Below, one piece after another: positions 10,894 to 62,678 of a stretch of 64,000 nt of DNA. Each line of letters opens with the position of its first letter. Position 1 is the first letter of the stretch. The notes beneath the pieces were generated by a model that did no database searches, was not told where the DNA came from, and saw only the letters and a program-made list of their open reading frames with translations. Made by a program: the position numbers and the translations under genes. The DNA comes from Paracoccaceae bacterium (GTDB lineage Bacteria; Pseudomonadota; Alphaproteobacteria; Rhodobacterales; Rhodobacteraceae). The stretch spans positions 62,391-126,390 of the forward strand of contig JACONJ010000020.1 in NCBI GenBank assembly GCA_014323785.1, given 5' to 3'.

Positions 10894-12216
10894 ATGCTCT
10901 TTCGCCCGCCGATGTCTCTGGCCCTGGCCGGATATCTTCTGTTCGCCGGGCGGGCAAAGCGTTTCGCCGAGCGCAAACTGGCCGGGCGGCTGGAACTTGG
11001 CAAAGAGGACGCCACCCGCCTTGATGAGCGTCGGGGCATCGCCTCTCGCCCCCGGCCGGATGGACGGCTTTTGTGGTTTCATGCTGCCAGCGTGGGCGAG
11101 TCACTTGCGCTTCTGGAACTGATCCGGCGCGTGATCGAGGATGATTCGGAGCTGTCAGTTCTGGTCACAACCAGCACTGTCACCTCGGCCGCGGTGATGG
11201 AAAGCCGCCTGCCTGATGGTGCGTTTCATCAATATATCCCGTTGGATGCCACGGTTTTTGTTCGGCGATTCCTGGACCATTGGCACCCGGCTTTGGCTGT
11301 CTGGACCGAGAGTGAGCTCTGGCCCGCGCTGATGACCGAAACCCACGCCCGCAACATCCCGATGCTTCTGATTAACGCACGGATGTCCAAGGCAAGCTAC
11401 GATAAATGGTGCTGGCTCCGGGGGATGGCACGCAGCCTTTTGCAACGCTTCGACTTTGCCCACGTGCAGGACGATATCACCGCGGGATATCTTCGGCGAC
11501 TTGGCCTGCCCGAAGAGCGGATGCAGGTAACCGGCACGCTGAAGGAAGGCGCGGCGGCACTGCCTTATGACGAAGGCGAGCGGGCGCAACTGGCTTCGGA
11601 CCTGTCGGGTCGCCCGGTCTGGCTTGCGGCCTCTACCCATGAGGGAGAGGAGGAAAAGGTGCTAGAAGCCCATCGCCTGGCACTAAGGGGCAATCCAAGG
11701 CTCCTGTTGATCCTGGTGCCGCGCCACCCTCAGCGCGGCGATGCCCTGGCCGAGTGGCTGGAAGGGGATGGCTGGGTTATCGCGCGCCGCAGCCGGGATG
11801 CGCGTTTTGGCCCCGATTGCCAGGTTTATCTGGCCGATACGATGGGAGAGATGGGGCTGTGGTATCGCCTGTCCCCAATCAGCTTCGTCGGGGGTTCCCT
11901 GACCAGGACCGGCGGGCATAACCCGTTTGAACCAGCGGCTCTCGGCTCGGCCATTCTGCACGGGCCTTATGTGACGAATTTCGCCGATATCTATCAGCGC
12001 CTGACCGAAGCCGGGGCGGTGCGGCTTGTCTTGGGGGCTGATACGCTGGCCCGTGCGGTCAATGATCTGATGAACCCCGGCACGGCGGCAGCGATGGCCA
12101 GTGCGGCTTGGGACGTGTCCTCTGCCGGGGCGAATGTCACCGACATGGCGGCGGGGCTGCTTCTTGACTGGCTTGACCAGGTTGAACGGGGGGGGGCTGC
12201 CCCAAGGGCCGGGTGA
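10894..12216 (+). CDS. waaA: 3-deoxy-D-manno-octulosonic acid transferase
   Basis: WFHAASVGE, ESELWP, ASTHEGEE, LVPRHPQR, GGHNPFEPA. Confidence 0.93.
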   Translation: MLFRPPMSLALAGYLLFAGRAKRFAERKLAGRLELGKEDATRLDERRGIASRPRPDGRLLWFHAASVGESLALLELIRRVIEDDSELSVLVTTSTVTSAAVMESRLPDGAFHQYIPLDATVFVRRFLDHWHPALAVWTESELWPALMTETHARNIPMLLINARMSKASYDKWCWLRGMARSLLQRFDFAHVQDDITAGYLRRLGLPEERMQVTGTLKEGAAALPYDEGERAQLASDLSGRPVWLAASTHEGEEEKVLEAHRLALRGNPRLLLILVPRHPQRGDALAEWLEGDGWVIARRSRDARFGPDCQVYLADTMGEMGLWYRLSPISFVGGSLTRTGGHNPFEPAALGSAILHGPYVTNFADIYQRLTEAGAVRLVLGADTLARAVNDLMNPGTAAAMASAAWDVSSAGANVTDMAAGLLLDWLDQVERGGAAPRAG

Positions 12217-29643: not shown

Positions 29644-30240
29644 ATGGCCCATATCGATTACTATTTTACGGTACTTTCGCCCTTTACCTATTTGGCCGGG
29701 CACCGGCTCGAGGACAGCGCGGCCCGCCATGGCGCAAGCGTGACGTATAAACCGTTGGACATCATGGCATTGTTCGCGCGCACCGGTGGCCTTCCCCCGA
29801 AAGAAAGGCACCCCGCGCGACAGGCCTATCGGCTGCAGGATCTGGCTCGCACGGCCAGGAAGCGGGGGGTTCCGCTGAACCCGCAACCGGCATTCTGGCC
29901 CACGAACCCGGTGCCGGCCTCCTGTGCCATTATCGCCGCGCAGAAGGCGGGCGGTGATCTGGGCGCGCTGGTTCACGCTGTGACGCGCCGGGTCTGGGCC
30001 GAGGAACAGAACATCGCCGAAGACAAGGTGGTGCGCGACGCACTGGAAGAGGCCGGATTCGCCCCCGCGCTCGCCGAAAGCGGGATGGTGACAGGGGCCG
30101 GGGAATACGCCGCCAATCTCGAGGACGCGGTCGCTGGCAATGTTTTCGGTGCGCCCTTCTATGTGGTGGACGGGACCGAACACTTCTGGGGCCAGGACCG
30201 GCTGGAGGATCTGGACCTGTACCTTTCCGGCGCAATGTGA
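29644..30240 (+). CDS. 2-hydroxychromene-2-carboxylate isomerase / DsbA-like GST-kappa family
   Basis: IDYYFTVLSPFTYL, VFGAPFY, FWGQDRL motifs. Confidence 0.88.
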   Translation: MAHIDYYFTVLSPFTYLAGHRLEDSAARHGASVTYKPLDIMALFARTGGLPPKERHPARQAYRLQDLARTARKRGVPLNPQPAFWPTNPVPASCAIIAAQKAGGDLGALVHAVTRRVWAEEQNIAEDKVVRDALEEAGFAPALAESGMVTGAGEYAANLEDAVAGNVFGAPFYVVDGTEHFWGQDRLEDLDLYLSGAM

Positions 30241-30246
30241 CGAGGT

Positions 30247-30274
30247 CGCCCCGGCCTGAAACCAGACCGGGGCG
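30247..30274. terminator. Hairpin terminator shared by both OMP cassettes (second copy 35366-35393)
   Basis: CGCCCCGG...CCGGGGCG stem (12 bp with one G-U on the minus strand); ATTTTGT follows on the plus strand. Confidence 0.65.
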
Positions 30275-30311
30275 ATTTTGTGCGCTTTTGGTTCAGATGC
30301 GCACCGCCGGA

Positions 30312-30971
30312 TCAGAACGCAAAGAGCAGACCGACACCGAACTTGGTTTGATCGAGTTCAATCGGCTCATTAACCTGGACCCCAAGCATCTCATTGTGAT
30401 AGTCCTCATCTCCGTACCGGGCGTGTTCCACCTGTGCGAACACCTTGTGCCCTTCCGACACTTGATAGTTCAACCCCAGCACCACTTTGGGACCGAAGTG
30501 GATGTTGCTGTCGGAAGTGGAGACGGTGGATCCCAAGGCTGAGATAGAGTACGAAATCTCACCCTTAACCGCAGAGATACCGATGCCTCCGTAGAACGAA
30601 AGGGCATCGGTTGCGTTGACCCCGGCCAGGAACAGGGCATCCGCACTGAAGTCAGTACTGATCTCACCTGTACCGCTAACCTCAATCGCTGAAATAACCT
30701 CACTCTCGGTTACTTCACGTGACGTGTTTTCCAGGGCGAGAACCCCTTGAAACCCGATGAAGCCACTGGCCGTTGGGCTGGTACGGCGAAACACAACCCC
30801 CACAGCCTGCCCGTTTTCGTCACCGCTTAGGTTGGTTATGGTGTCGGTAGCCTCATACTCCGCGCCTTGCAGGATGATGCCAAACTCGGTTTCCTGCGCC
30901 AGGGCAGGGCCGCACAGCAGTACCAGGCTGGCCCCGGTTGCCGCGCAAAATTTTGATACGTTCATGTTCAT
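30312..30971 (-). CDS. Outer-membrane beta-barrel protein (about 8 strands, OmpA-TM/Omp25-like fold)
   Basis: Signal peptide ending ALA|Q, alternating amphipathic strands, terminal Phe (KFGVGLLFAF), GGGAG RBS before ATG 30971. Confidence 0.8.
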   Translation of the reverse strand: MNMNVSKFCAATGASLVLLCGPALAQETEFGIILQGAEYEATDTITNLSGDENGQAVGVVFRRTSPTASGFIGFQGVLALENTSREVTESEVISAIEVSGTGEISTDFSADALFLAGVNATDALSFYGGIGISAVKGEISYSISALGSTVSTSDSNIHFGPKVVLGLNYQVSEGHKVFAQVEHARYGDEDYHNEMLGVQVNEPIELDQTKFGVGLLFAF

Positions 30972-31039
30972 GCTTTGAACTCCCGTTACACATGTTGCCA
31001 AGGGTCATGTTGTTCTTGACCCCGAATCCTGCCTAACGT

Positions 31040-31052
31040 ATTGTACCCCCCC
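31040..31052 (-). promoter_or_regulatory. -10 box with adjacent poly-G7, OMP copy 1
   Basis: Minus strand GGGGTTGC-G7-TACAAT. Confidence 0.55.
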
Positions 31053-31116
31053 GCAACCCCTCACAATCAAAAATCTGGTCTTGTCTAAAAATCCGTTTCC
31101 GCCCCGCAAATGCGGG

Positions 31117-31563
31117 TCATGTCCCGGGTTCCCTGATGATGTACGCCTCCCAGTCCTCTTCAGGTACTTCGACCTCGGGTATGGTGAGGCCCCGGGCCGA
31201 AACCCCGGCCTGATGCACGGTGCGCCGATCGCCCGAGATCAGGGGGTGCCACCAGTGCAGCGGTTTGCCCTGATGAATCAGGCGATAGGCGCAGGTTGCG
31301 GGCATAAAATAGGCGACCTTATCCATGGTCCCGGGCGTCAGCCGGATACACTCAGGGACCAGGGCCTTGCGCGTGGGGTAGCTGGTGCATTGGCAGGTTG
31401 TGTCGTCCAGCAGGCGGCAGGCGATGCGGGTCAGCGCGACCTCTCCCGTTGCGTCGTCCTGCAGTTTGTTCAGGCAGCATTTGCCGCAGCCGTCGCACAG
31501 TGCCTCCCACTCCTTTGGCGTCATTTGCGCCATCGGAACGTGCTCCCAGAATCGCCCCCTCAT
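31117..31563 (-). CDS. YcgN (UPF0260) cysteine-cluster protein
   Basis: EWEALCDGCGKCC, ACRLLD, C..YPTR, PECI, MPATCAYR. Confidence 0.9.
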   Translation of the reverse strand: MRGRFWEHVPMAQMTPKEWEALCDGCGKCCLNKLQDDATGEVALTRIACRLLDDTTCQCTSYPTRKALVPECIRLTPGTMDKVAYFMPATCAYRLIHQGKPLHWWHPLISGDRRTVHQAGVSARGLTIPEVEVPEEDWEAYIIREPGT

Positions 31564-32486
31564 AGCGTGCCGAGCACGTCGCGCGCGGCGGCACTGTCGG
31601 CATCCATTTGCGCAATCAGCGCATCGACACTGTCAAAACGGGCCTCAGGGCGCAGGAAATCGACCAGTGCCACTGAGAGGTGCGCACCGTAAAGATCACC
31701 GCTGAAATCAAAAAGGAAGGTTTCCAAATTCGGCACCTGCCCGCCAAACATCGGGCGGACGCCAAGTGAGGCAACGCCGCGATAGCTGCCCTGATGCGCA
31801 CCATCCAGGACGTCGACCAGCACGGCATAGACGCCGTGCCTGGGAACATGCAGACCGGCCAGGGACATATTCGCGGTTGGATACCCCAATTGCCGCCCGC
31901 GCTTTTCGCCATGCAGCACGGGGCCTTCGATCCGGTGCCAATCGCCCAGCATCGCCGCGGCGTCCCGCACCCGGCCCGCGCCAAGCGCGGTGCGGATACT
32001 GGTTGAGGAAACAGCACCAGAATCGCCTTTGATGACCTTGGCCACTGTCACGTCGAAGCCATGGCGTGCGCCGAACACCTGCAGCAGGGACACCGTACCG
32101 CCCCGGCCCCGGCCAAAGCGGAAATCGGCACCGATAACGACATGCCGGACCCCCAGCCCCTTGACCAGAACATCCCGGGCAAAATCTTCGGCCTCCAGCC
32201 CCGCCAGCGCAGGGCCAAAGGGCAATTCATAAAGCCGTTCCACCCCCAACTGTTCCAGCCGGCGAGCCCGCGCCCGCGCATTCATCAACCGAAAGGGCAA
32301 GGCGTCGGGAACAAAGAATTCCCTGGGATGGGGTTCAAAGGTCAGAATACCCAAGGGCGCGTCATGAGCGCGGGCGATGTCGATCACGCGCTGATGGCCC
32401 AGGTGCAGACCATCAAAATTGCCGATGGCGACCGAGGCCCCCCGATCCTTCGGCGTGGCATATTGATAGTTGCGCACAATCCGCAT
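31560..32486 (-). CDS. ribF: Bifunctional riboflavin kinase/FAD synthetase
   Basis: GNFDGLHLGH, TFEPHP, SSTSIR, GYPTAN, GVRPMF, LRPE; start placed at MRIVRNY. Confidence 0.95.
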   Translation of the reverse strand: MRIVRNYQYATPKDRGASVAIGNFDGLHLGHQRVIDIARAHDAPLGILTFEPHPREFFVPDALPFRLMNARARARRLEQLGVERLYELPFGPALAGLEAEDFARDVLVKGLGVRHVVIGADFRFGRGRGGTVSLLQVFGARHGFDVTVAKVIKGDSGAVSSTSIRTALGAGRVRDAAAMLGDWHRIEGPVLHGEKRGRQLGYPTANMSLAGLHVPRHGVYAVLVDVLDGAHQGSYRGVASLGVRPMFGGQVPNLETFLFDFSGDLYGAHLSVALVDFLRPEARFDSVDALIAQMDADSAAARDVLGTL

Positions 32487-32721
32487 GGCCCCCCGCTTAA
32501 CCGTGCAAGCGGTTAAGGGCAAGACGGCGGCCCGAATCACGCCGGGCGATGCAGGGAACGACGACATACCCCCCCTCTTTGAAGCCCGACACCCACATTC
32601 CCCCTTTTGAAACAGCCGCCAATCCCCGCCCTGCACCCAGGCGGGTACTTGCCCCCGCCTGTCCCTTTGCCTATTGGTGCCCCGTGAAACAGCACGCCCG
32701 GAGGGAGGCACCGAACCCTGG

Positions 32722-33483
32722 ATGTGGCCCGCTTTTGTCATCAATATGGCCCAGGATACCGCACGGCTGGCCCGGGCCGGGGCCGAGCTGGACCGGGCGG
32801 GGGTGCCTTGGGTGCGGCTGGAGGCGGTGGATGGCCGCGCGCTAAGTTGGGAAGAGGTCGCCCAAGTCTACGATATCGGGGCCAACCGGCGGCGTGCCAG
32901 ACATCCCCTGACCCGCCCCGAGATCGGCTGCTACCTCAGCCATATTAAGGCGTGGAAGGCGATTGTGGCAGGTGACCACCAGGGCGGCTTTGTGTTTGAA
33001 GATGATTTGCTCGTCACCGGCGATTTGGCGGGCGTGTCAGAGGCATTGGCGCGGGATTATGGTGGCTGGGATATTGCCAAATTGTTTTCCCTAAAACCGA
33101 TAGCCTTGCGCGGTTTGCCGCGTGATCTTGTCGCGGGCTACCGGATCGGCTGGCCCGTGCGTGTGCCCGCTACTACCCTTGGCTACGCAATCACGCGGGC
33201 GGGTGCAGAGCAGTTGCTGGCATGCGTGCCGCCGTTCTTTCGGCCCATTGATGAGGATCACAAGTTTTTCTGGGATTTTGATTTGTCCGTCACGCTCGTC
33301 ACCCCGTACCCGATCAAGGTCGGCATGCAGGAGGCGGCAAGCGGCACGGTGGGTGCGGCGCGCCGCTGCGCCATGCAGGTGGACCCGCGCAGTGCCATCA
33401 CCCGGGGCTGGCGCGGGATCACCTATCGTGCGGGCTATATGGCCGGGCTGCTGCGTTACCGTCCGGGCGGGTCGCCGAAATGA
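32722..33483 (+). CDS. Glycosyltransferase family 25
   Basis: FVINM...R, AVDG, EIGCYLSH, FEDD, GY.ITR.GA, PID motifs. Confidence 0.88.
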   Translation: MWPAFVINMAQDTARLARAGAELDRAGVPWVRLEAVDGRALSWEEVAQVYDIGANRRRARHPLTRPEIGCYLSHIKAWKAIVAGDHQGGFVFEDDLLVTGDLAGVSEALARDYGGWDIAKLFSLKPIALRGLPRDLVAGYRIGWPVRVPATTLGYAITRAGAEQLLACVPPFFRPIDEDHKFFWDFDLSVTLVTPYPIKVGMQEAASGTVGAARRCAMQVDPRSAITRGWRGITYRAGYMAGLLRYRPGGSPK

Positions 33484-34514
33484 CCGATGGCCCCTTGTTT
33501 CATCTGCAATTCGGCCGGGACGGCGGGACTGAGCGGTCCTTCCTGCGTTTGGCCGAGGCGTTTGCCGCACGCGGTGTGGTGCAGGAATTCGCGATCCGGC
33601 CCGGCAATTCCTGGCGCAGCACCTTGGACCAGCTCGGCCCGGTGCATGAGGGCTGGTTCCTGCGCCGGACCCCCTTGGGCCTGTGGCAGGCGGCCCGGTT
33701 GCGCCGCCGGATCATGGCGTCGGGTGCACAGGCGGTGATGGCTTGGCGCGCCCCTGCGGCCCGGCTGATCCCTGCACTGCCAACCGCCGCCAAGATCACG
33801 ATCCTAGGCGATTACCCAAGGCATCTGCGGCATTTCGGGTATCTGGATTGTTTGGTGGGCGTCTCACCCCCGGTGCTGGAACATTGCCGTTGCTTGGGGT
33901 GGGAAGGCCCCATGCGCCTGATCCCCAACTTCCTCCCGGAAACCTTCGCGCCCATTCCCGTGAACCGTGCGGCGTTTGACACGCCCCGGAATGCGTTCCT
34001 GATCATCGGGGTAGGGCGGTTTGTTCGAATCAAGGGGTTTGACACCCTGATTCATGCCGCTGCCGCCTGCCCCGATGCCTGGCTCTGGCTGGTGGGTGAC
34101 GGGGAAGAGCGTGCCGCACTGGAACGACTGGTGGCCGCGCTGGGCATGGCGGCGCGCACCCGCTTTGTCGGCTGGGTTAACCGCCCACAGGATTACATCG
34201 CTGCGGCAGATGTCTTTGCCATGCCAAGCCGACAGGAGCCCCTGGGCAATGTTGTTCTTGAGGCTTGGGCCGCTGGTGTGCCGGTCATCTCTACCCGATC
34301 AGAGGGGCCAGACTGGTTTGCAACGGATGGCGTGGATTGCCTGCTGGTCGATATCGATGACAGCACCGCCATGGCAGCGGCAATCACCCGGCTGCGCACG
34401 GCCCCGGACATGGCCGCGCAACTGGTCAAAGGTGGCCGCGCCACGATGGCCGCCCGCTTTACGCAAGACGCCGTGGTCAACCGCTATCTTGAGATTTTTG
34501 ACCGACAGTTCTAG
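33480..34514 (+). CDS. Glycosyltransferase family 4 (GT-B)
   Basis: VGRFVRIKGFD, LVGDG, PSRQEPLGNVVLEAW. Confidence 0.88.
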   Translation: MTDGPLFHLQFGRDGGTERSFLRLAEAFAARGVVQEFAIRPGNSWRSTLDQLGPVHEGWFLRRTPLGLWQAARLRRRIMASGAQAVMAWRAPAARLIPALPTAAKITILGDYPRHLRHFGYLDCLVGVSPPVLEHCRCLGWEGPMRLIPNFLPETFAPIPVNRAAFDTPRNAFLIIGVGRFVRIKGFDTLIHAAAACPDAWLWLVGDGEERAALERLVAALGMAARTRFVGWVNRPQDYIAAADVFAMPSRQEPLGNVVLEAWAAGVPVISTRSEGPDWFATDGVDCLLVDIDDSTAMAAAITRLRTAPDMAAQLVKGGRATMAARFTQDAVVNRYLEIFDRQF

Positions 34515-34520
34515 GGCCGG

Positions 34521-35357
34521 ATGCTGCGCACGATCATCATCAATATGGCCACCGCCACGGATCGAATGGGGTTCATGGCCGCCCAGATGGCGCACTTCAA
34601 CCTGTCCTGGGAACGGTTAGAGGCCGTTACCCCCGCCACGCTGACCCCGCCCGCCGATGATCCGGTCTGGCGCCGCTGGCAGCGGCCCTTGCGGCAAACG
34701 GAAATGGCACTTTGTGCCTCTCATATGCGGGTCTGGGAGCAGGTGCTGAAACACGACGCGCCCTGTCTGATATTAGAGGATGACGCTGTCCTTGCCGCTG
34801 ATCTTCCCGATTTTCTGGCGCGGGTGACGGGGCTGCCCAACATCGACCATCTAAGCCTGGAGACGCGGGGGCGCAGGAAATTCGTGAGTATTCACATGCA
34901 TCCGGCCGCGCCTGTCCGGCGGCTGTGGCAGGATCGCACCGGGGCTGCCGCCTATATCGCCTGGCCCAGGGGGGCGCGTCAGATGCTGGCCAGGGCGCAC
35001 GCGGCAGGGGGGGGCCCTGCGGACGCGGTGATCAGCGGAACCTGGGGCATGAAGAGTTTTCAGGCCGATCCGGCCCTGAGCGTACAACTGGATATGTGTG
35101 ACCGCTACGGCATTCCGCAGGCGATCCCGGTGCGGTCCCTGGTTGATGTGGAAGATAAGCCGACCGACTGGAGCGGCTATTCCGCCGCAGCACGGCGCGG
35201 GTTCCGCAGGCGGCGGGTTTGGGCGCAAATCTCTATGGGGGTGCGGCAGGCGGTGCGCATGCCAAAGGGGCGGCGGATGCATATCCGCCCCGCGTTCGAT
35301 TGGCCCGGGCTTTCGGTCACCGCGGATACGGGCGCACCCGGTTCCAAAAGGGACTGA
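34521..35357 (+). CDS. Glycosyltransferase family 25
   Basis: IINM...DR..FM, EMALCASH, ILEDDA, GAAAY, PAD motifs. Confidence 0.85.
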   Translation: MLRTIIINMATATDRMGFMAAQMAHFNLSWERLEAVTPATLTPPADDPVWRRWQRPLRQTEMALCASHMRVWEQVLKHDAPCLILEDDAVLAADLPDFLARVTGLPNIDHLSLETRGRRKFVSIHMHPAAPVRRLWQDRTGAAAYIAWPRGARQMLARAHAAGGGPADAVISGTWGMKSFQADPALSVQLDMCDRYGIPQAIPVRSLVDVEDKPTDWSGYSAAARRGFRRRRVWAQISMGVRQAVRMPKGRRMHIRPAFDWPGLSVTADTGAPGSKRD

Positions 35358-35430
35358 TACAGGACCGCCCCGGCCTGAAACCAGACCGGGGCGATGTCGT
35401 GCGCTTGCGGTTCAGATGCGCACCGCCGGG

Positions 35431-36135
35431 TCAGAACGCGAAGAGCATCCCGACGCCAAACTTGGTTTGATCGAACTCAAGCGGCACGATAAAAAAGTAG
35501 TCCTCCTCCCGATAGCGGGCGTGTTCCAACTGTGCAAACACTTTGCGCCCTTCCGACAGTTGATAGTTCACCCCCAGCACCGCTTTGGGACCGAAATGGA
35601 AGTTGCTGTCAGAACCGGAATCGAGGGTGTCACCCTCAACATCCGATAAAGAAATCTCGGCACTGATCGCGGACAGGCCGATGCCTCCGTAGAACGAAAG
35701 AGCATCGGTTGTGTTGACCCCGGCCAGAAACAGAATGTCAGCACTGAAGTCTGTACTGATTTCTATCTCCCCGTTCAGAGTGTTATTTCCTACCTCTACA
35801 TTATTGAAGGATGCTTCATAGGACGTGTTTTCAAGGGTGAGAGCCCCTTGAAACCCGATGAAGCCTCCATTGGCCGTTGGGCTGGTGCGGCGCAACACAG
35901 CACCCACAGCCGTTGGGCTGGTGCGGCGAAAAGCACCCAGGACTTCCCCGGCTTCCTCACCACCTGCGGCTTCCCCGGTTTCGTCACCGATGTCACCTAT
36001 CCCCGGAACGGTAGCCCCATACTCCGCCCTTTGGAAGATGATGCCAAACTCGGTTTCCTAGGCCACAGCAGGGCCACACAGCAGCACCAGGCCGGCCCCC
36101 GTTGCTGCGCAAAATTTTGATACGTTCATGTTCAT
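35431..36135 (-). pseudogene. Outer-membrane beta-barrel paralog with an amber stop at the first mature codon and an internal 36-bp duplication
   Basis: MNMNVSKFCAATGAGLVLLCGPAVA*ETEFGII...; TAG at 36058-36060 where copy 1 has CAG; frame otherwise open to ...KFGVGMLFAF. Confidence 0.88.
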
Positions 36136-36203
36136 GCGTTGAACTCCCGTTATGCATGTTGCCAAGGGTCAGGTTATCCTTGACCCCGAATCCTGCCTAA
36201 CGT

Positions 36204-36222
36204 ATTGTACCCCCCCCCCCCC
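36204..36222 (-). promoter_or_regulatory. -10 box with adjacent poly-G13, OMP copy 2
   Basis: Minus strand GGGGTTGC-G13-TACAAT (C run 36210-36222 on plus). Confidence 0.55.
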
Positions 36223-36268
36223 GCAACCCCTCAGCATTTGAAAATGGGGTGTGCGGCTACCCCGGGCA

Positions 36269-37180
36269 TCACCTCTGGTGCGAAACGAACCGGGCCTGCC
36301 GCCACGGTTTCCAGCGCCGATGCACCCAGAACCATTGTTCCGGCCGCGTGCGCACCCTGTGGGCCAGACTGTCATTCAGGGCCTGGGTCATCGTTTCGGC
36401 ATCGCTTGCCGGGATCGGGGCCTCAAGCGTGACGTTGAAATCCAGGCCGTTTGCCATGCGTTCGGCATAGAACGGGATCAGCACAGCATCGTATTTCAGG
36501 GCCATTGCGGCGACGGCCAGCCCGGTGGGGGCAGGTTGCCCCAGGAAATCCAGTTGCACCCCGCCAGCGGTGTATTGGTCAATCAATACCACGCCATGGC
36601 CACCGGATTTCAGATACCGCACAAATTGAACCATGCCACGGGTGCCGCGCGGAAAGACCGGCCCCCCAAGGCGTTCCATGGCTGCCACGTAGTGGCGGTT
36701 GAAATAGCCGTTATTCATGGGCCGGTAAAGGCCGCCGATGGTGTATCCCCGCACGGTCAGCGCGGCACGGGCGGCCTCATAATTCCCGAAATGTCCCGAT
36801 ATCAGCAGAACCGGCCGTCCTGCGGCTTTGGCCCTGGCCAGGGCAGGCACACCGGGGCCCAAAGGCACCCACCCCTTCGCACGGGCCAGCAGTTCCGCCG
36901 TGGAGTAATTCTCGATCAGCATACGCCCGAAATTGTCAATTGCGGCATCGGCAATCCGCCCGGCCCGACCAGGGGGCAGATCCGGCCAGACATGGGCCAG
37001 ATTGGCCAGGGCGCGGGATTTGGCACCGCTTATGGGGCCGGCCACACGACGCATGAACCAGCCCGTTATCGGGACGCGGCGGTCATAGGGCAGGGCGCAG
37101 GCCAGTCCGATCACTCCGCGTGCGATGCTGTCGCTGATCCAGTTTTGCCAGGTGAAGCTTTGCGTGTTGGATACACCCAT
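36269..37180 (-). CDS. Lysophospholipid/lipid A acyltransferase (LpxL/HtrB-like)
   Basis: SGHFGNYE HxxxxE motif, LIDQ, FLG, PEQWFWVHRRWK. Confidence 0.88.
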   Translation of the reverse strand: MGVSNTQSFTWQNWISDSIARGVIGLACALPYDRRVPITGWFMRRVAGPISGAKSRALANLAHVWPDLPPGRAGRIADAAIDNFGRMLIENYSTAELLARAKGWVPLGPGVPALARAKAAGRPVLLISGHFGNYEAARAALTVRGYTIGGLYRPMNNGYFNRHYVAAMERLGGPVFPRGTRGMVQFVRYLKSGGHGVVLIDQYTAGGVQLDFLGQPAPTGLAVAAMALKYDAVLIPFYAERMANGLDFNVTLEAPIPASDAETMTQALNDSLAHRVRTRPEQWFWVHRRWKPWRQARFVSHQR

Positions 37181-39420: not shown

Positions 39421-39792
39421 CCTAGGATACGCCTGGATTGGACTCAGGCAAACCCGTAGTGTGGCACGGGGAATTCACAGGACCGGCGTTGGTGTTCCAA
39501 CATGAACCCGCTACGGGGGGGGGCCGCCAGACTGGCACGACCACGCACAGAACCCCGCCCCGGCACGGCCCCACGGGGGATGATGCTGAAGGACGGGGTG
39601 CCGCTGGCGCGTGCCGGTCCGTCATGTCGCGTGGTGCCCCCATTTGCCACCACTCAAACAACCGCCGCCTTGTCGATTGACAGGTGGCAGCCGCCGTCAA
39701 ACGCCCCGGTGGGGGCGGACTGGGTTCAATGGTGACGTGTGGCCGCACGTCAATTTTGTAGCGGGCCGGAGGTGCCTTAAAATCCCGCCTTA

Positions 39793-42067: not shown

Positions 42068-42115
42068 GTGCTCCGTTAAGTACTCCAAACCCCACGCCAG
42101 GAAGCCGTTGTGGGG
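42068..42115 (-). promoter_or_regulatory. SAM/SAH riboswitch (Rhodobacterales class) in the metK leader
   Basis: Minus strand CCCCACAACGGCTTCCTGGCGTGGGG...GGAGCA before ATG; the CACAACGGCUUCCUGGCGUG core and SD-pairing GGAGCA match the SAM-SAH motif. Confidence 0.85.
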
Positions 42116-42153
42116 CCTTGAGCACGAACATCTACGCCCAACCGTACCGGGGG

Positions 42154-47706: not shown

Positions 47707-48885
47707 TTCCAGTTGACCCCGCCCTTAAGCCGCTGAAAAAAGGTTGGCCCCGGTGATTTGCCCTCAAACTGCTCGATCAGCCAGAACATGATTCCCTCAA
47801 TATGGGTAAAATCCGGTTGAATCAGCCGCGGTTCCCCGCCGTCCACCTCAATCCTGCCAAGATGAAGCGGTGAAAGGAGTGTCCTTTGCGGATGCGGCCA
47901 ATGCTGCCAGAGCTGATAGGTCTCTCCACAGAAGCGGTTAAGGTAGTCACGCTGCGCAGCTTCGGTAAAGCTGGCATAACCTGTCTGGCCGTCGCTGGAC
48001 CCGAATTCCTGAAGACGCACAAGGGACTCCTCGGGTTTAGAGATGATCACCGCAAGCGACATGCGATCTGTCAGGCCCGGAAAGGTCTTTTTCAGGTACG
48101 CCACCAGGGACGCGAAGAGCTGGTCGTTTTCCTCAATATCCGGGCTCAGCATCAGAACAAAGCAGAACCTGAGGTTACGATTGCTCAGATAGGCGTGCAA
48201 AACAGGGGCCATTTTGGGTGCGGCATCGGGCTTTGGCAGAACCTCTTGCAAAAGCTCGCCCGACATTTCAAGAAAGCTGAAGTTTGATCGGATTTTCCTC
48301 CCGGACGTGGTGCGCGTCTCAATCACGACCTCACGAATGTCGCTTTCGCCGGCAGGGGGTTGGATCCGGAAAGCGGCCTTCGATCCATTGGCCTTTCCAT
48401 GCATTGATGATGGTTCTGCCCACCCAATCCGCGCCTCCGGGGCGGTCGGGAACGGATATTTCCGTCCGAAAGGGGCCTTCGTTCATAAGGTAGTTCATCA
48501 ACATCCACTGAAACGTGGTTTTCCCGCTTCCGGGAAACCCGAAGGAAAAGATGTAATTGCCGGATACCCTCGCCTTAATCTCGTCAACTGCCAGGCCATC
48601 CTTCGCAACTTGCCGCACACGCCGAAGATACCCGGGGCGCCCATCGAAAGCAGTATCTTGCGGAGGGTCTCGCCGCAAACTCGCCCCACTATTTTGCCCG
48701 GGGCGTCCATCGACAGCAGTATCTTGCGAAGGGCCTCGCCGCAAACTCGCTCCACTATTTTGCCCGGGGTGCCCATCGGAAGCAGTATCTTGCAAAGGTA
48801 TCAGGCCAAGTGCCTCGGCTTCCGCGCGTCCGGGGCGACCATCGAAAGCGGTGTCGCGCAAAGGGGGGTTGTTCTTCTCATCCAT
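47703..48885 (-). pseudogene. TRAFAC-class GTPase gene split by a +1 frameshift
   Basis: G1 GFPGSGKT, G2 region FPDPT, G3-like EMSGE, G4-like SKPE; removing one G from G5 at 48355-48359 joins ORFs 48331..48885 and 47703..48404 into 393 aa; AAGGAGG RBS. Confidence 0.8.
48631..48860. repeat. 66-bp coding tandem repeat (about 3.5 units, 22-aa period)
   Basis: Units start at 48631, 48697, 48763, 48829; protein xxDTA(F/S/V)DG(R/H)PG four times. Confidence 0.9.
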
Positions 48886-61376: not shown

Positions 61377-62678
61377 CTACACGAAGCGATTGACGATCTT
61401 CTCTAATCGCTCTTGTCGGCCTGAAACCGGGCTTGGGTTGATACTGTTTGCCTCAGCCCAAGCGGCGATTTTGTCCAGGGGCTGGGTCAATAAAGCCTGG
61501 CGTTCCTTTGTTGTCCATCCCGCATACCGCTTTGTGCGGGCCTCTTCCAGTGTACCATCCTCCAGCATGGCGACCGCTGCTTTCAGACCGCGTGCGCAAA
61601 CATCCATCGCACCCACGTGGGACAGGATCAAATCTTCGGGTTCAAGCGACTGCCGCCGCAGCTTTGCATCAAAATTCGTGCCCCCGGTGGTGAAGCCACC
61701 CGCCTTCAGCACTTCATAATAGGCCAGTGCCACCTCGGGCACCGAATTCGGAAACTGGTCCGTATCCCAGCCTGACTGGTAGTCATTGCGATTCATATCG
61801 ATGGAACCAAAGAGGCCCAAAGCACCCGCCATGGCCAGTTCATGCTCAAACGAATGGCCCGCCAGGATCGCGTGGCCATGTTCAATGTTGACCTTCACAT
61901 CGCCCTCAAGACCGAAATCCTTCAGAAAGCCGTAGACTGTGCAGACGTCGAAATCGTATTGATGCTTTGTTGGTTCCTGCGGCTTCGGCTCGATCAGGAT
62001 GGTGCCATTGAACCCGATCTTCCTGGCATAATCAACGACCGCGCAGAGGAACCGCCCCGCCTGTTCCCGCTCGCGCCTGATATCCGTATTCAGTAGCGTC
62101 TCATACCCCTCGCGCCCGCCCCAAAGCACATAATTTTCACCCCCCAGCCTAAGCGTTGCATCCAGGCAATATTTCACCGTGGCTGCTGAATAGGCATAAA
62201 CATCCGGGTCCGGATTTGTTGCCGCCCCGGACATAAACCGTCGGTTGGAAAAAAGGTTGGCTGTCCCCCAAAGAAGCTTTGTTCCCACTTCTTCCATTTT
62301 CCCGCCCAGGTAGTCGGTCATCTCTTCCATACGGGCGCGGTTTTCCGCAAGACTGTCCCCCTCAGGTCGGACATCCGCATCATGCCAGCAGTAATACGGC
62401 TGTCCCAGGATGCGAAACATCTCAAACGCTACATCCGCCTTCTGCCTGGCATGTTCCATTGTCTCCCCGAACCAGGGCCGCTCAAACGTCTGGCCACCAA
62501 ACGAATCCCCCCCGGGCCAGGCAAAGGAGTGCCAATAGGCCACGGCAAAGCGCAGGTGCTCGGCCATGGTTCTGTCGCCCAGCGTCTCTGCCGGGTTGTA
62601 GTGACGGAAGGCGAATTCGTTTGCCGTATCTGCCCCCTCATATGTGATCTCGGGGATGTCCTTAAAAAAGCTGGTCAT
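61377..62678 (-). CDS. xylA: Xylose isomerase (class II)
   Basis: [35 protein letters not shown]. Confidence 0.96.

Follow-up and report, generated by a model that had tools for sequence, protein, structure and literature searches.

Phase-variable surface proteins are textbook features of pathogens and, to our knowledge, are hardly documented in marine mutualists. The closest described systems carry a homopolymer in or over the core promoter of a gene for an outer-membrane protein (OMP). Treponema pallidum tp0126, which encodes an OmpW homolog, has a poly-G tract between its -35 and -10 elements; tract length varies both among isolates and inside a single isolate and determines how strongly the gene is transcribed, and promoter poly-G tracts are also present in tprE, tprG, tprJ, tprF, tprI and tprL (PMC7864442). 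Neisseria meningitidis porA likewise has poly-G between -35 and -10, and opc has poly-C over its -35 (PMC7864442). Slipped-strand mispairing in such a core-promoter homopolymer gives graded or on/off expression (PMC7864442; PMC3447861, citing Sarkari et al. 1994). The subject here is two paralogous OMP genes, A1 and A2, with poly-G tracts at their predicted promoters, which lie in a 64-kb window (the whole stretch of DNA that was analysed: positions 62,391 to 126,390 of contig JACONJ010000020.1, assembly GCA_014323785.1, Paracoccaceae bacterium).

As with tp0126 and the tpr genes, A1 and A2 encode small or paralogous outer-membrane barrels with a variable poly-G tract in the predicted core promoter, in host-associated bacteria with reduced genomes. 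They differ in having no sequence homology to the treponemal genes, in tracts that are longer (up to 16-17 in the family as a whole) and directly abut a -10-like hexamer, and in belonging to a marine sponge mutualist. PorA, a porin, has 16 strands and the OpcA barrel 10, against eight predicted for the proteins here; the organisms are unrelated, and all tract lengths given below were read from assembled consensus contigs only. The proteins also resemble the PF13505 superfamily (Omp25/Omp31, RopB, Bartonella Hbp/Pap31, and the fold relatives OmpA-TM, OmpX, Ail and OmpW) in their signal peptide, eight strands, C-terminal aromatic residue and long variable loops. Within that superfamily they form a very divergent private clade (best outside match E = 1e-17, ~30% identity), and no heme-binding or adhesin function can be inferred for them. 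PF13505-type barrels often form small paralog families.

A conserved framework with hypervariable loops is shared with Opa, which is 8-stranded, and with Msp2, which is surface-exposed, both of them variably expressed, and the initial annotation of this DNA had likened the locus to the antigenic variation of Opa, Msp2/P44 and Hbp-type families. The comparison fails in several respects. Opa is switched by CTCTT repeats in the signal-peptide coding region at ~4-11 loci, whereas the leader of A1 lacks any coding repeat; in Msp2/P44 a single expression site is combined with many promoterless donor pseudogenes, whereas here there are two loci, both with a full promoter and terminator. Pfam gave no match to PF02462 (Opacity) at E up to 1 and none to PF01617 (Surface_Ag_2). 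Neither the protein fold nor the proposed switch is new in kind; the novelty lies in the private subfamily, in its matched pairs in two streamlined symbionts co-resident in a sponge, and in the marine mutualist setting. The literature search found no paper tying homopolymer phase variation to Roseobacter-group bacteria or sponge symbionts.

The reading preferred here, with a probability of roughly 0.55, is that A1 and A2 form a pair of OMP paralogs private to this lineage, that their surface loops have diversified, that poly-G slippage modulates their promoters, and that A2 was recently lost to a nonsense mutation.

Poly-G tracts upstream of four genes

Two streamlined 2.55-Mb Rhodobacteraceae metagenome-assembled genomes (MAGs), GM7ARB1 and GM7ARB2, are known from the same Lamellodysidea herbacea clade III sponge (PMC7313196). 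A 31-mer index found the locus in sponge metagenomes, and the window organism is a genome-streamlined Rhodobacteraceae symbiont of L. herbacea, most likely the MAG GM7ARB1, in keeping with the lineage initially proposed. A 51% identical relative, P0002, is present in GM7ARB2 (GCA_014323795.1), which has a pair of its own, B1 and B2. The units and their promoter features are as follows.

30247-31063, minus strand: copy 1 (A1), 817 bp, promoter core to 3' hairpins, with edges at the limits of homology with copy 2
31040-31045, minus strand: A1 -10-like hexamer TACAAT, by direct sequence reading (TAAGTT in the B pair)
31046-31052, minus strand: A1 poly-G tract, G7, between TTGC (31053-31056) and the -10-like hexamer
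35366-36233, minus strand: copy 2 (A2), 868 bp, complete promoter-to-hairpin unit
36204-36209, minus strand: A2 -10-like hexamer TACAAT, by direct sequence reading, with TTGC at 36223-36226
36210-36222, minus strand: A2 poly-G tract, G13 in the window
L005:10001-10678: B1 (P0002), GM7ARB2 family member
L009:4486-5169: B2 (P0163), GM7ARB2 family member with a precomputed PF13505 match

The A copies are direct repeats spaced 5.1 kb apart, with both genes on the minus strand. Their alignment extends from GAGGGGTTGC upstream to the base of a 13-bp GC hairpin downstream, with abrupt loss of homology on both sides, and comprises five collinear repeat families of 82-90% identity. A 28-nt 3' hairpin occurs exactly twice in the 64-kb window where no occurrence is expected; given this and the five collinear families, the repeat is not due to chance. 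Common to both copies are the promoter core GAGGGGTTGC-G(n)-TACAAT, a hairpin (GGGTCA/TGACCC) in the 5' untranslated region (UTR), the Shine-Dalgarno sequence GGGAG, the signal peptide, the strands and two 3' hairpins. The initial annotation had described these units, with the same boundaries and shared elements, and alignment and RNA folding agree with it except at the promoter, where the core is conserved but the tract differs (G7 in A1, G13 in A2). Missing from that description were the A2 stop codon, the tiny size of the family and the poly-G tract of the promoter; of all the features, this tract says most about mechanism.

The arrangement TTGC-G(n)-TAnnnT is found in all four genes, with n from 7 to 16-17, 65-77 nt upstream of the start codon. 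Tract lengths were compared between the NCBI MAGs, an independent ENA assembly of the same metagenome (L001 for the window region, L004 for the B1 region) and Logan contigs of two sponge metagenome runs, X1 and X2; the two samples are referred to as S1- and S2-type. The A1 tract is G7 in the window, L001 and the Logan contigs alike. That of A2 is G13 in the window, at least G12 in Logan X1, and G11 in both L001 and Logan X2. The B1 tract is G16 in the NCBI MAG (L005) and G11 in the ENA assembly, and that of B2 is G16 in the NCBI MAG (L009) and G17 in Logan X1, while S2-type contigs break within it. Another tract, in the ribF/GT25 intergenic region (32569-32575, minus strand), is G7 in the window and X1 and G9 in L001 and Logan X2. 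For sample S2, the lengths at A2 (G11) and ribF/GT25 (G9) come out the same from two independent assemblers.

These changes occur on an otherwise invariant background. Neither L001 against the window (20.6 kb) nor L004 against L005 (20.7 kb) shows a single base substitution, and homopolymer lengths, namely those of the A2, ribF/GT25 and B1 tracts and of one T9/T10 tract, are the sole differences. Control tracts of G8 at 35007 and G9 at 39515 have the same length in the assemblies compared. In the DNA scanned, all G/C tracts of at least 10 are in OMP promoters, save two in L009. Among distant homologs, that of L019, the only upstream region read, is AT-rich and has no poly-G, and L020 has no tract of at least 10, so the poly-G tract looks clade-specific. 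The retention of a homopolymer at one promoter position, despite protein identity of 50-56%, argues for selection, as does the change of tract length without any substitution, which is the signature of a contingency locus.

In the proposed mechanism the tract would be a slipped-strand “contingency” switch, its length altering core-promoter geometry, most simply the -35/-10 spacing, such that each OMP gene could be turned on, off or down, heritably and reversibly. Loop diversity between the paralogs might then let the population present different surfaces to phage, predators or sponge phagocytes. The stem-loop conserved in the 5' UTR, a few nt after the predicted transcription start, could act as an mRNA stabiliser or regulatory target, and the pairs may have arisen by duplication, possibly followed by partial gene conversion.

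Several points weigh against a switch of this kind. If TTGCGG serves as the -35, spacer lengths come to 5-15 nt with the tracts observed, all under the 16-18 optimum, and A1, the only intact gene in the window, would need a -35 outside the shared unit (TTGATT, 19-nt spacer). A scan for the sigma-70 consensus found no sense-strand promoter, the sole match being antisense. Long G tracts are error-prone in Illumina assemblies, and the T9/T10 inter-assembly difference hints at a technical component. Both “samples” may be one clonal population sequenced twice, and the tract may be merely inherited baggage. None of the RNA-seq runs searched contained the locus.

Two further promoter candidates were considered and rejected. 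The antisense match, TTGACC-17-TATTGT on the plus strand of both copies, is probably coincidental, as it combines a UTR hairpin arm with the TACAAT hexamer read in reverse complement and has no counterpart in the sister-species UTR. The -35/-10 candidates beside the start codon would put the transcription start inside the coding sequence, ignoring the conserved Shine-Dalgarno sequence.

The ribF/GT25 tract lies in a divergent intergenic region between ribF, the true start of which is ~85 nt downstream, and a GT25-GT1-GT25 operon for the lipopolysaccharide (LPS) core. In Haemophilus and Neisseria, GT25 genes are well-known examples of phase variation, and by analogy this tract may be a second contingency locus. 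A bolder account can be offered only tentatively and is on balance doubtful: two co-resident mutualists would run pathogen-style contingency loci, with hypermutable poly-G switches on private, loop-diversified OMPs and the ribF/GT25 tract beside the LPS-core operon, and so hedge their surfaces against phage or sponge phagocytosis; in addition, a promoter-to-terminator unit would have been copied to new sites independently in each species, implying a recurrent means of copying expression units.

If the tracts do switch genes, a 2.55-Mb streamlined symbiont invests in stochastic surface variation, phage or host-phagocyte pressure would be indicated as a main selective force inside the sponge, and TTGC-G(n)-TAnnnT would provide a simple signature for metagenome searches. 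Otherwise the locus amounts to no more than an orphan OMP gene with a duplicate in decay.

The barrel proteins and the divergence of the copies

The coding regions, UTR and hairpins of the A pair are:

30312-30971, minus strand: A1 coding sequence, intact, 219 aa, with Sec signal peptide MNMNVSKFCAATGASLVLLCGPALA followed by QETE, C-terminal Phe (...LLFAF) and a predicted 8-stranded barrel
35431-36135, minus strand: A2 coding region, a pseudogene, frame otherwise intact, 234 aa if read through
36058-36060, minus strand: premature TAG at A2 codon 26 (CAG in A1), exactly at the signal-peptidase cleavage site
35873-35988, minus strand: two tandem duplications in A2 loop 1 and strand 2, 36 nt x 1.9 (FRRTSPTA twice) and 27 nt x 2, from Tandem Repeats Finder and protein alignment
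30972-31039, minus strand: A1 5' UTR, with closing helix CGUUA:UAACG around the hairpin GGGUCA/UGACCC (31002-31022) and Shine-Dalgarno GGGAG at 30980-30984
30246-30304: two A1 3' hairpins, a 13-bp GC stem (30246-30275) and GTGCGC/GCGCAC (30280-30304), adjoining the stop of a convergent DsbA-family gene (30238-30240)
35365-35424: two A2 3' hairpins, adjoining the stop of a convergent GT25 glycosyltransferase gene (35355-35357)

The in-frame TAG of codon 26 recurs in every assembly (L001 matches the window with 0 mismatches, and Logan contigs show no variant), so a CAG>TAG nonsense codon makes A2 a pseudogene. Gene callers report it only as a 155-aa fragment (P0003).

In Pfam, A1 scores 31.1 bits for OMP_b-brl (PF13505), where the cut-off is 28.7, and has no other noteworthy match; A2 read through scores 26.7 bits, just under the same cut-off. 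An AlphaFold (AF2) model of A1, built on an alignment of 35 distant relatives, is an 8-stranded barrel (predicted local distance difference test 90.8, predicted template modelling score 0.80) with strands at residues 27-43, 49-66, 70-93, 96-119, 124-145, 148-172, 175-195 and 198-218. Foldseek matched this model to OmpA-TM, Ail, OmpX, OmpW and NspA in the PDB (probability 1.0), with OprG and OpcA also among the structural matches; a PDB search with the OMP sequence gave no match. Pfam, the AF2 model and Foldseek together indicate that A1 and A2 encode an outer-membrane β-barrel, as first annotated, and that it has eight strands. Rfam has no known RNA family in or near either unit, and PADLOC gave no defence-system match.

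Mapped onto the A1 model, the segments that vary between A1 and A2 are the tips of four long extracellular hairpins, and the periplasmic turns and membrane strands are conserved. The proposal that all four surface loops differ is confirmed by alignment and by the modelled topology, loop 4 for instance being HNEMLGVQVNEPIE in one copy and FFIVPLE in the other. In the conserved blocks the proportion of synonymous differences (pS) is 0.295 (synonymous divergence, dS, 0.375) and nonsynonymous divergence (dN) 0.089, giving an omega of 0.24. The four loop blocks have 39-51% nucleotide identity, with indels and tandem duplications, and are effectively saturated. The non-coding flanks have 11 differences in ~160 sites (7%) against 34 in 115 synonymous sites (Fisher p = 8e-7); they are better conserved than synonymous sites and are therefore constrained or recently homogenised. 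Divergence is thus a mosaic of strands, loops and flanks, far from uniform, and this rules out a simple old duplication with uniform divergence, an alternative raised when the units were first described. Between the two samples (L001 and the window) the A1 and A2 coding regions show no sequence change.

The 5' UTR is predicted to fold at -19 kcal/mol in A1, and the copy 2 version has a z-score of -2.6. A predicted closing helix, CGUUA:UAACG in the A pair and GGUUCC:GGAACC in the B pair, begins a few nt past the presumed transcription start and ends beside the Shine-Dalgarno sequence. The A and B UTRs have the same nested architecture of helix and hairpin but different helix sequences, with a shared unpaired CCCUUG(U)GGCAA in between. 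With two sequence types only, this is no more than suggestive of covariation; the 5' stem-loop may plausibly stabilise the mRNA or bind a small RNA or protein. The A1 3' hairpins fold at -37.6 kcal/mol (z = -4.0), and on the plus strand they continue with ATTTTGTGCGCTTTTGG. The 13-bp hairpin has a T-run on the plus strand only and probably also terminates the convergent neighbor gene. The 3' hairpins of the A and B subfamilies are unrelated in sequence.

How large is the family? The initial annotation envisaged a multicopy repertoire, which is contradicted by a profile search of 5.8 billion protein clusters: it returned four proteins only (P0001, P0003, P0002 and P0163). A HMMER scan of 1.84 billion representatives gave next relatives no better than E = 1e-17 and ~30% identity, and scans of JGI metagenomes with a peptide pattern and a DNA pattern found no further relatives. 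The OMP family therefore consists of two genes per genome in two genomes of one sponge clade, and one of the two in the window is a pseudogene. P0002 was considered as a third paralog of the window genome and rejected, as its contigs have ~4.5-fold lower depth in both runs (GM7ARB2 loci ~16x in X1 and ~8x in X2); because of this gap the window and B loci are assigned to two organisms, and P0002 belongs to GM7ARB2.

B1 and B2 are on different contigs with unrelated neighbor genes, and their homology is limited to ~860 bp (L005:9912-10769 and L009:4397-5258) of 75% identity. Their 80-nt 5' UTR is identical, the signal-peptide region has a pS of 0.06 and the 3' hairpins are 93% identical, while the loops are divergent. 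Identity is 77% for A1 and A2, 76% for B1 and B2 and 63-65% for A against B, and in loop windows the within-genome identity drops to the between-species level. This clustering of paralogs by genome is compatible both with independent duplications and with a framework that evolves in concert.

Beside B1, GM7ARB2 has a gene (L005 10778-11470, minus strand) for a C-terminally membrane-anchored protein of 24-aa repeats (...LEERVTAIQQNM...), which is 230 aa long in two assemblies and 206 aa in a third (L006 819-1439), a difference of one 72-nt repeat unit. One Logan contig, 302 nt long and with a depth (84x, 36x) that fits the window organism, is 91% identical to a GM7ARB2 N4/N6 DNA methyltransferase gene (L005 8923-9224), so both symbionts share related restriction-modification genes.

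Alternative explanations

Ordinary paralogy is possible though unlikely. It supposes an old duplication, after which purifying selection kept the strands and regulatory flanks and the exposed loops evolved in a relaxed or diversifying way, the tract being neutral, its length differences noise from assembly or sequencing and no switching taking place. In its favor are the count of only two copies per genome, an omega of 0.24 in the conserved blocks and the decay of one copy (A2); the T9/T10 difference indicates that homopolymer calls can wobble, and the tract lengths give no canonical 17-nt spacer, nor did the scan find a consensus sense-strand promoter. However, neutrality of the tract is hard to reconcile with at least seven G at the same promoter position in 4/4 genes of subfamilies that are only 50-56% identical in protein. 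Noise would also have to account for length differences of up to 2-5 nt, with the S2 lengths reproduced by two independent assemblers, and for a short, easily sequenced tract (G7 vs G9 at 32569) that varies without base substitution while the G8 and G9 control tracts are stable.

Antigenic variation by gene conversion, with A2 as a silent loop donor for A1 as in Anaplasma Msp2/P44, Neisseria pilE/pilS or Treponema tprK, is improbable. The A2 frame is otherwise intact, and its divergent loops lie between conserved blocks able to guide recombination; synonymous divergence is uneven along the genes, and the near-identical 200-nt 5' segment of B1 and B2 suggests that conversion does occur. But A2 would be the single potential donor, and its full promoter, signal peptide and terminator mark a recently killed gene, not a promoterless cassette. 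Coding regions are identical between samples and assemblies, moreover, and no chimeric loop variants are present in the Logan contigs.

More improbable still is a mobile gene cassette, in which the promoter-to-hairpin unit is moved by a site-specific or hairpin-directed mechanism, integron/attC-like or resembling a miniature inverted-repeat transposable element. Homology in both pairs ends sharply, 11-25 nt upstream of the tract on one side and a few nt past the hairpin on the other; the four units lie in unrelated contexts, and paralogs cluster within each genome. In minus-strand sense the window order is truA | lpxL-like acyltransferase > A2 | GT25 < GT1 < GT25 | ribF > ycgN > A1 | DsbA-family < prs. 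An empty-site comparison, which the initial annotation had proposed, covered four relatives whose RibF is 74-78% identical: the MAG GCA_028279315.1, Fontisubflavum oceani, Rhodophyticola and GCA_965656935.1. All four have the order MaoC-ribF-ycgN-threonine aldolase(-hydrolase)-DsbA-prs, with no OMP gene at the A1 site. A1 occupies the place of one or two other genes in the relatives (aldolase and hydrolase, between ycgN and DsbA), and the MaoC side of ribF is replaced in the window by three LPS-core glycosyltransferase genes, A2, lpxL and truA. Judged by gene order, the A1 and A2 units are lineage-specific insertions or replacements.

Spread as complete cassettes, as initially suggested, is nonetheless inferred from the sharp edges of homology, and the DNA shows no mechanism for mobility. 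Neither a transposase nor an integrase is present in the 20-kb neighborhoods of the A or B units, where the neighbors are housekeeping and LPS genes, and the unit ends have no terminal inverted repeats or target duplications, as already reported; the flanks outside A1 and A2 are unrelated. There are only two copies per genome, the 3' hairpin is not a dispersed repeat (no third occurrence in the 64-kb window), and the A and B hairpins, as noted, are not alike. In a compact 2.55-Mb genome with little intergenic DNA outside functional elements, sharp edges are expected anyway: the stop codon of the convergent neighbor is only 6-8 nt past the hairpin, and because intergenic DNA is minimal such edges are weak evidence for precise mobility. 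The DsbA terminator of the relatives was considered as a pointer to the parent copy, but it is a different hairpin and so uninformative.

An assembly artefact is excluded, as the independent ENA assembly reproduces both copies with 0 mismatches over 20.6 kb, Logan contig depth is even in and around both (~72x in X1, ~32x in X2), and JGI and Logan contigs stop at the shared 5' ends, as a genuine repeat predicts. A Logan “joint” 31045>36212 and joints that go back were considered as deletion or circularisation between the repeats and rejected, as the ENA and JGI assemblies support the window linkage. They reflect bubble popping between two UTR alleles, a 73-nt bubble between identical 30-nt and 38-nt stretches, of which the X1 Logan assembly retained the copy 2 allele and X2 the copy 1 allele. 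The resulting chimeric 5' UTR alleles and apparent 5.1-kb “skips” in the X1 and X2 Logan contigs (30943-31052, 36107-36222) are a caution against calling deletions from such data.

Other features of the neighborhoods

Synteny breaks against four relatives (loci L015, L017, L018 and L021; window 31064-36269) place both OMP copies at rearrangement junctions. The neighborhood is rich in LPS and lipid A genes, among them kdtA-lpxK at 10.9-13.2 kb and, close by, a gene for an MsbA-like ABC transporter. A G9 tract at 12188-12196 covers the last codons of kdtA (waaA) at its junction with the overlapping lpxK start, and a change in its length would alter the KdtA C-terminus.

Within 5 kb of B2 there are homopolymers of C15 (L009 19-33) and G12 (L009 781-792). 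The latter is just upstream of a small open reading frame (ORF; L009 569-766, minus strand) with an EF-Tu-like N-terminus (MAKARFERLKPH), an EF-G-like C-terminus and an adjoining AT-rich stretch, which may be a recombination remnant of a fusA-tuf junction. Elsewhere in the window, an S-adenosylmethionine/S-adenosylhomocysteine (SAM/SAH) riboswitch (RF01727, 51 bits; 42069-42119, minus strand) lies directly upstream of metK, a known element in its usual position, and a 66-nt tandem repeat of 2.5 copies and 90% identity (48631-48798) overlaps several long ORFs.

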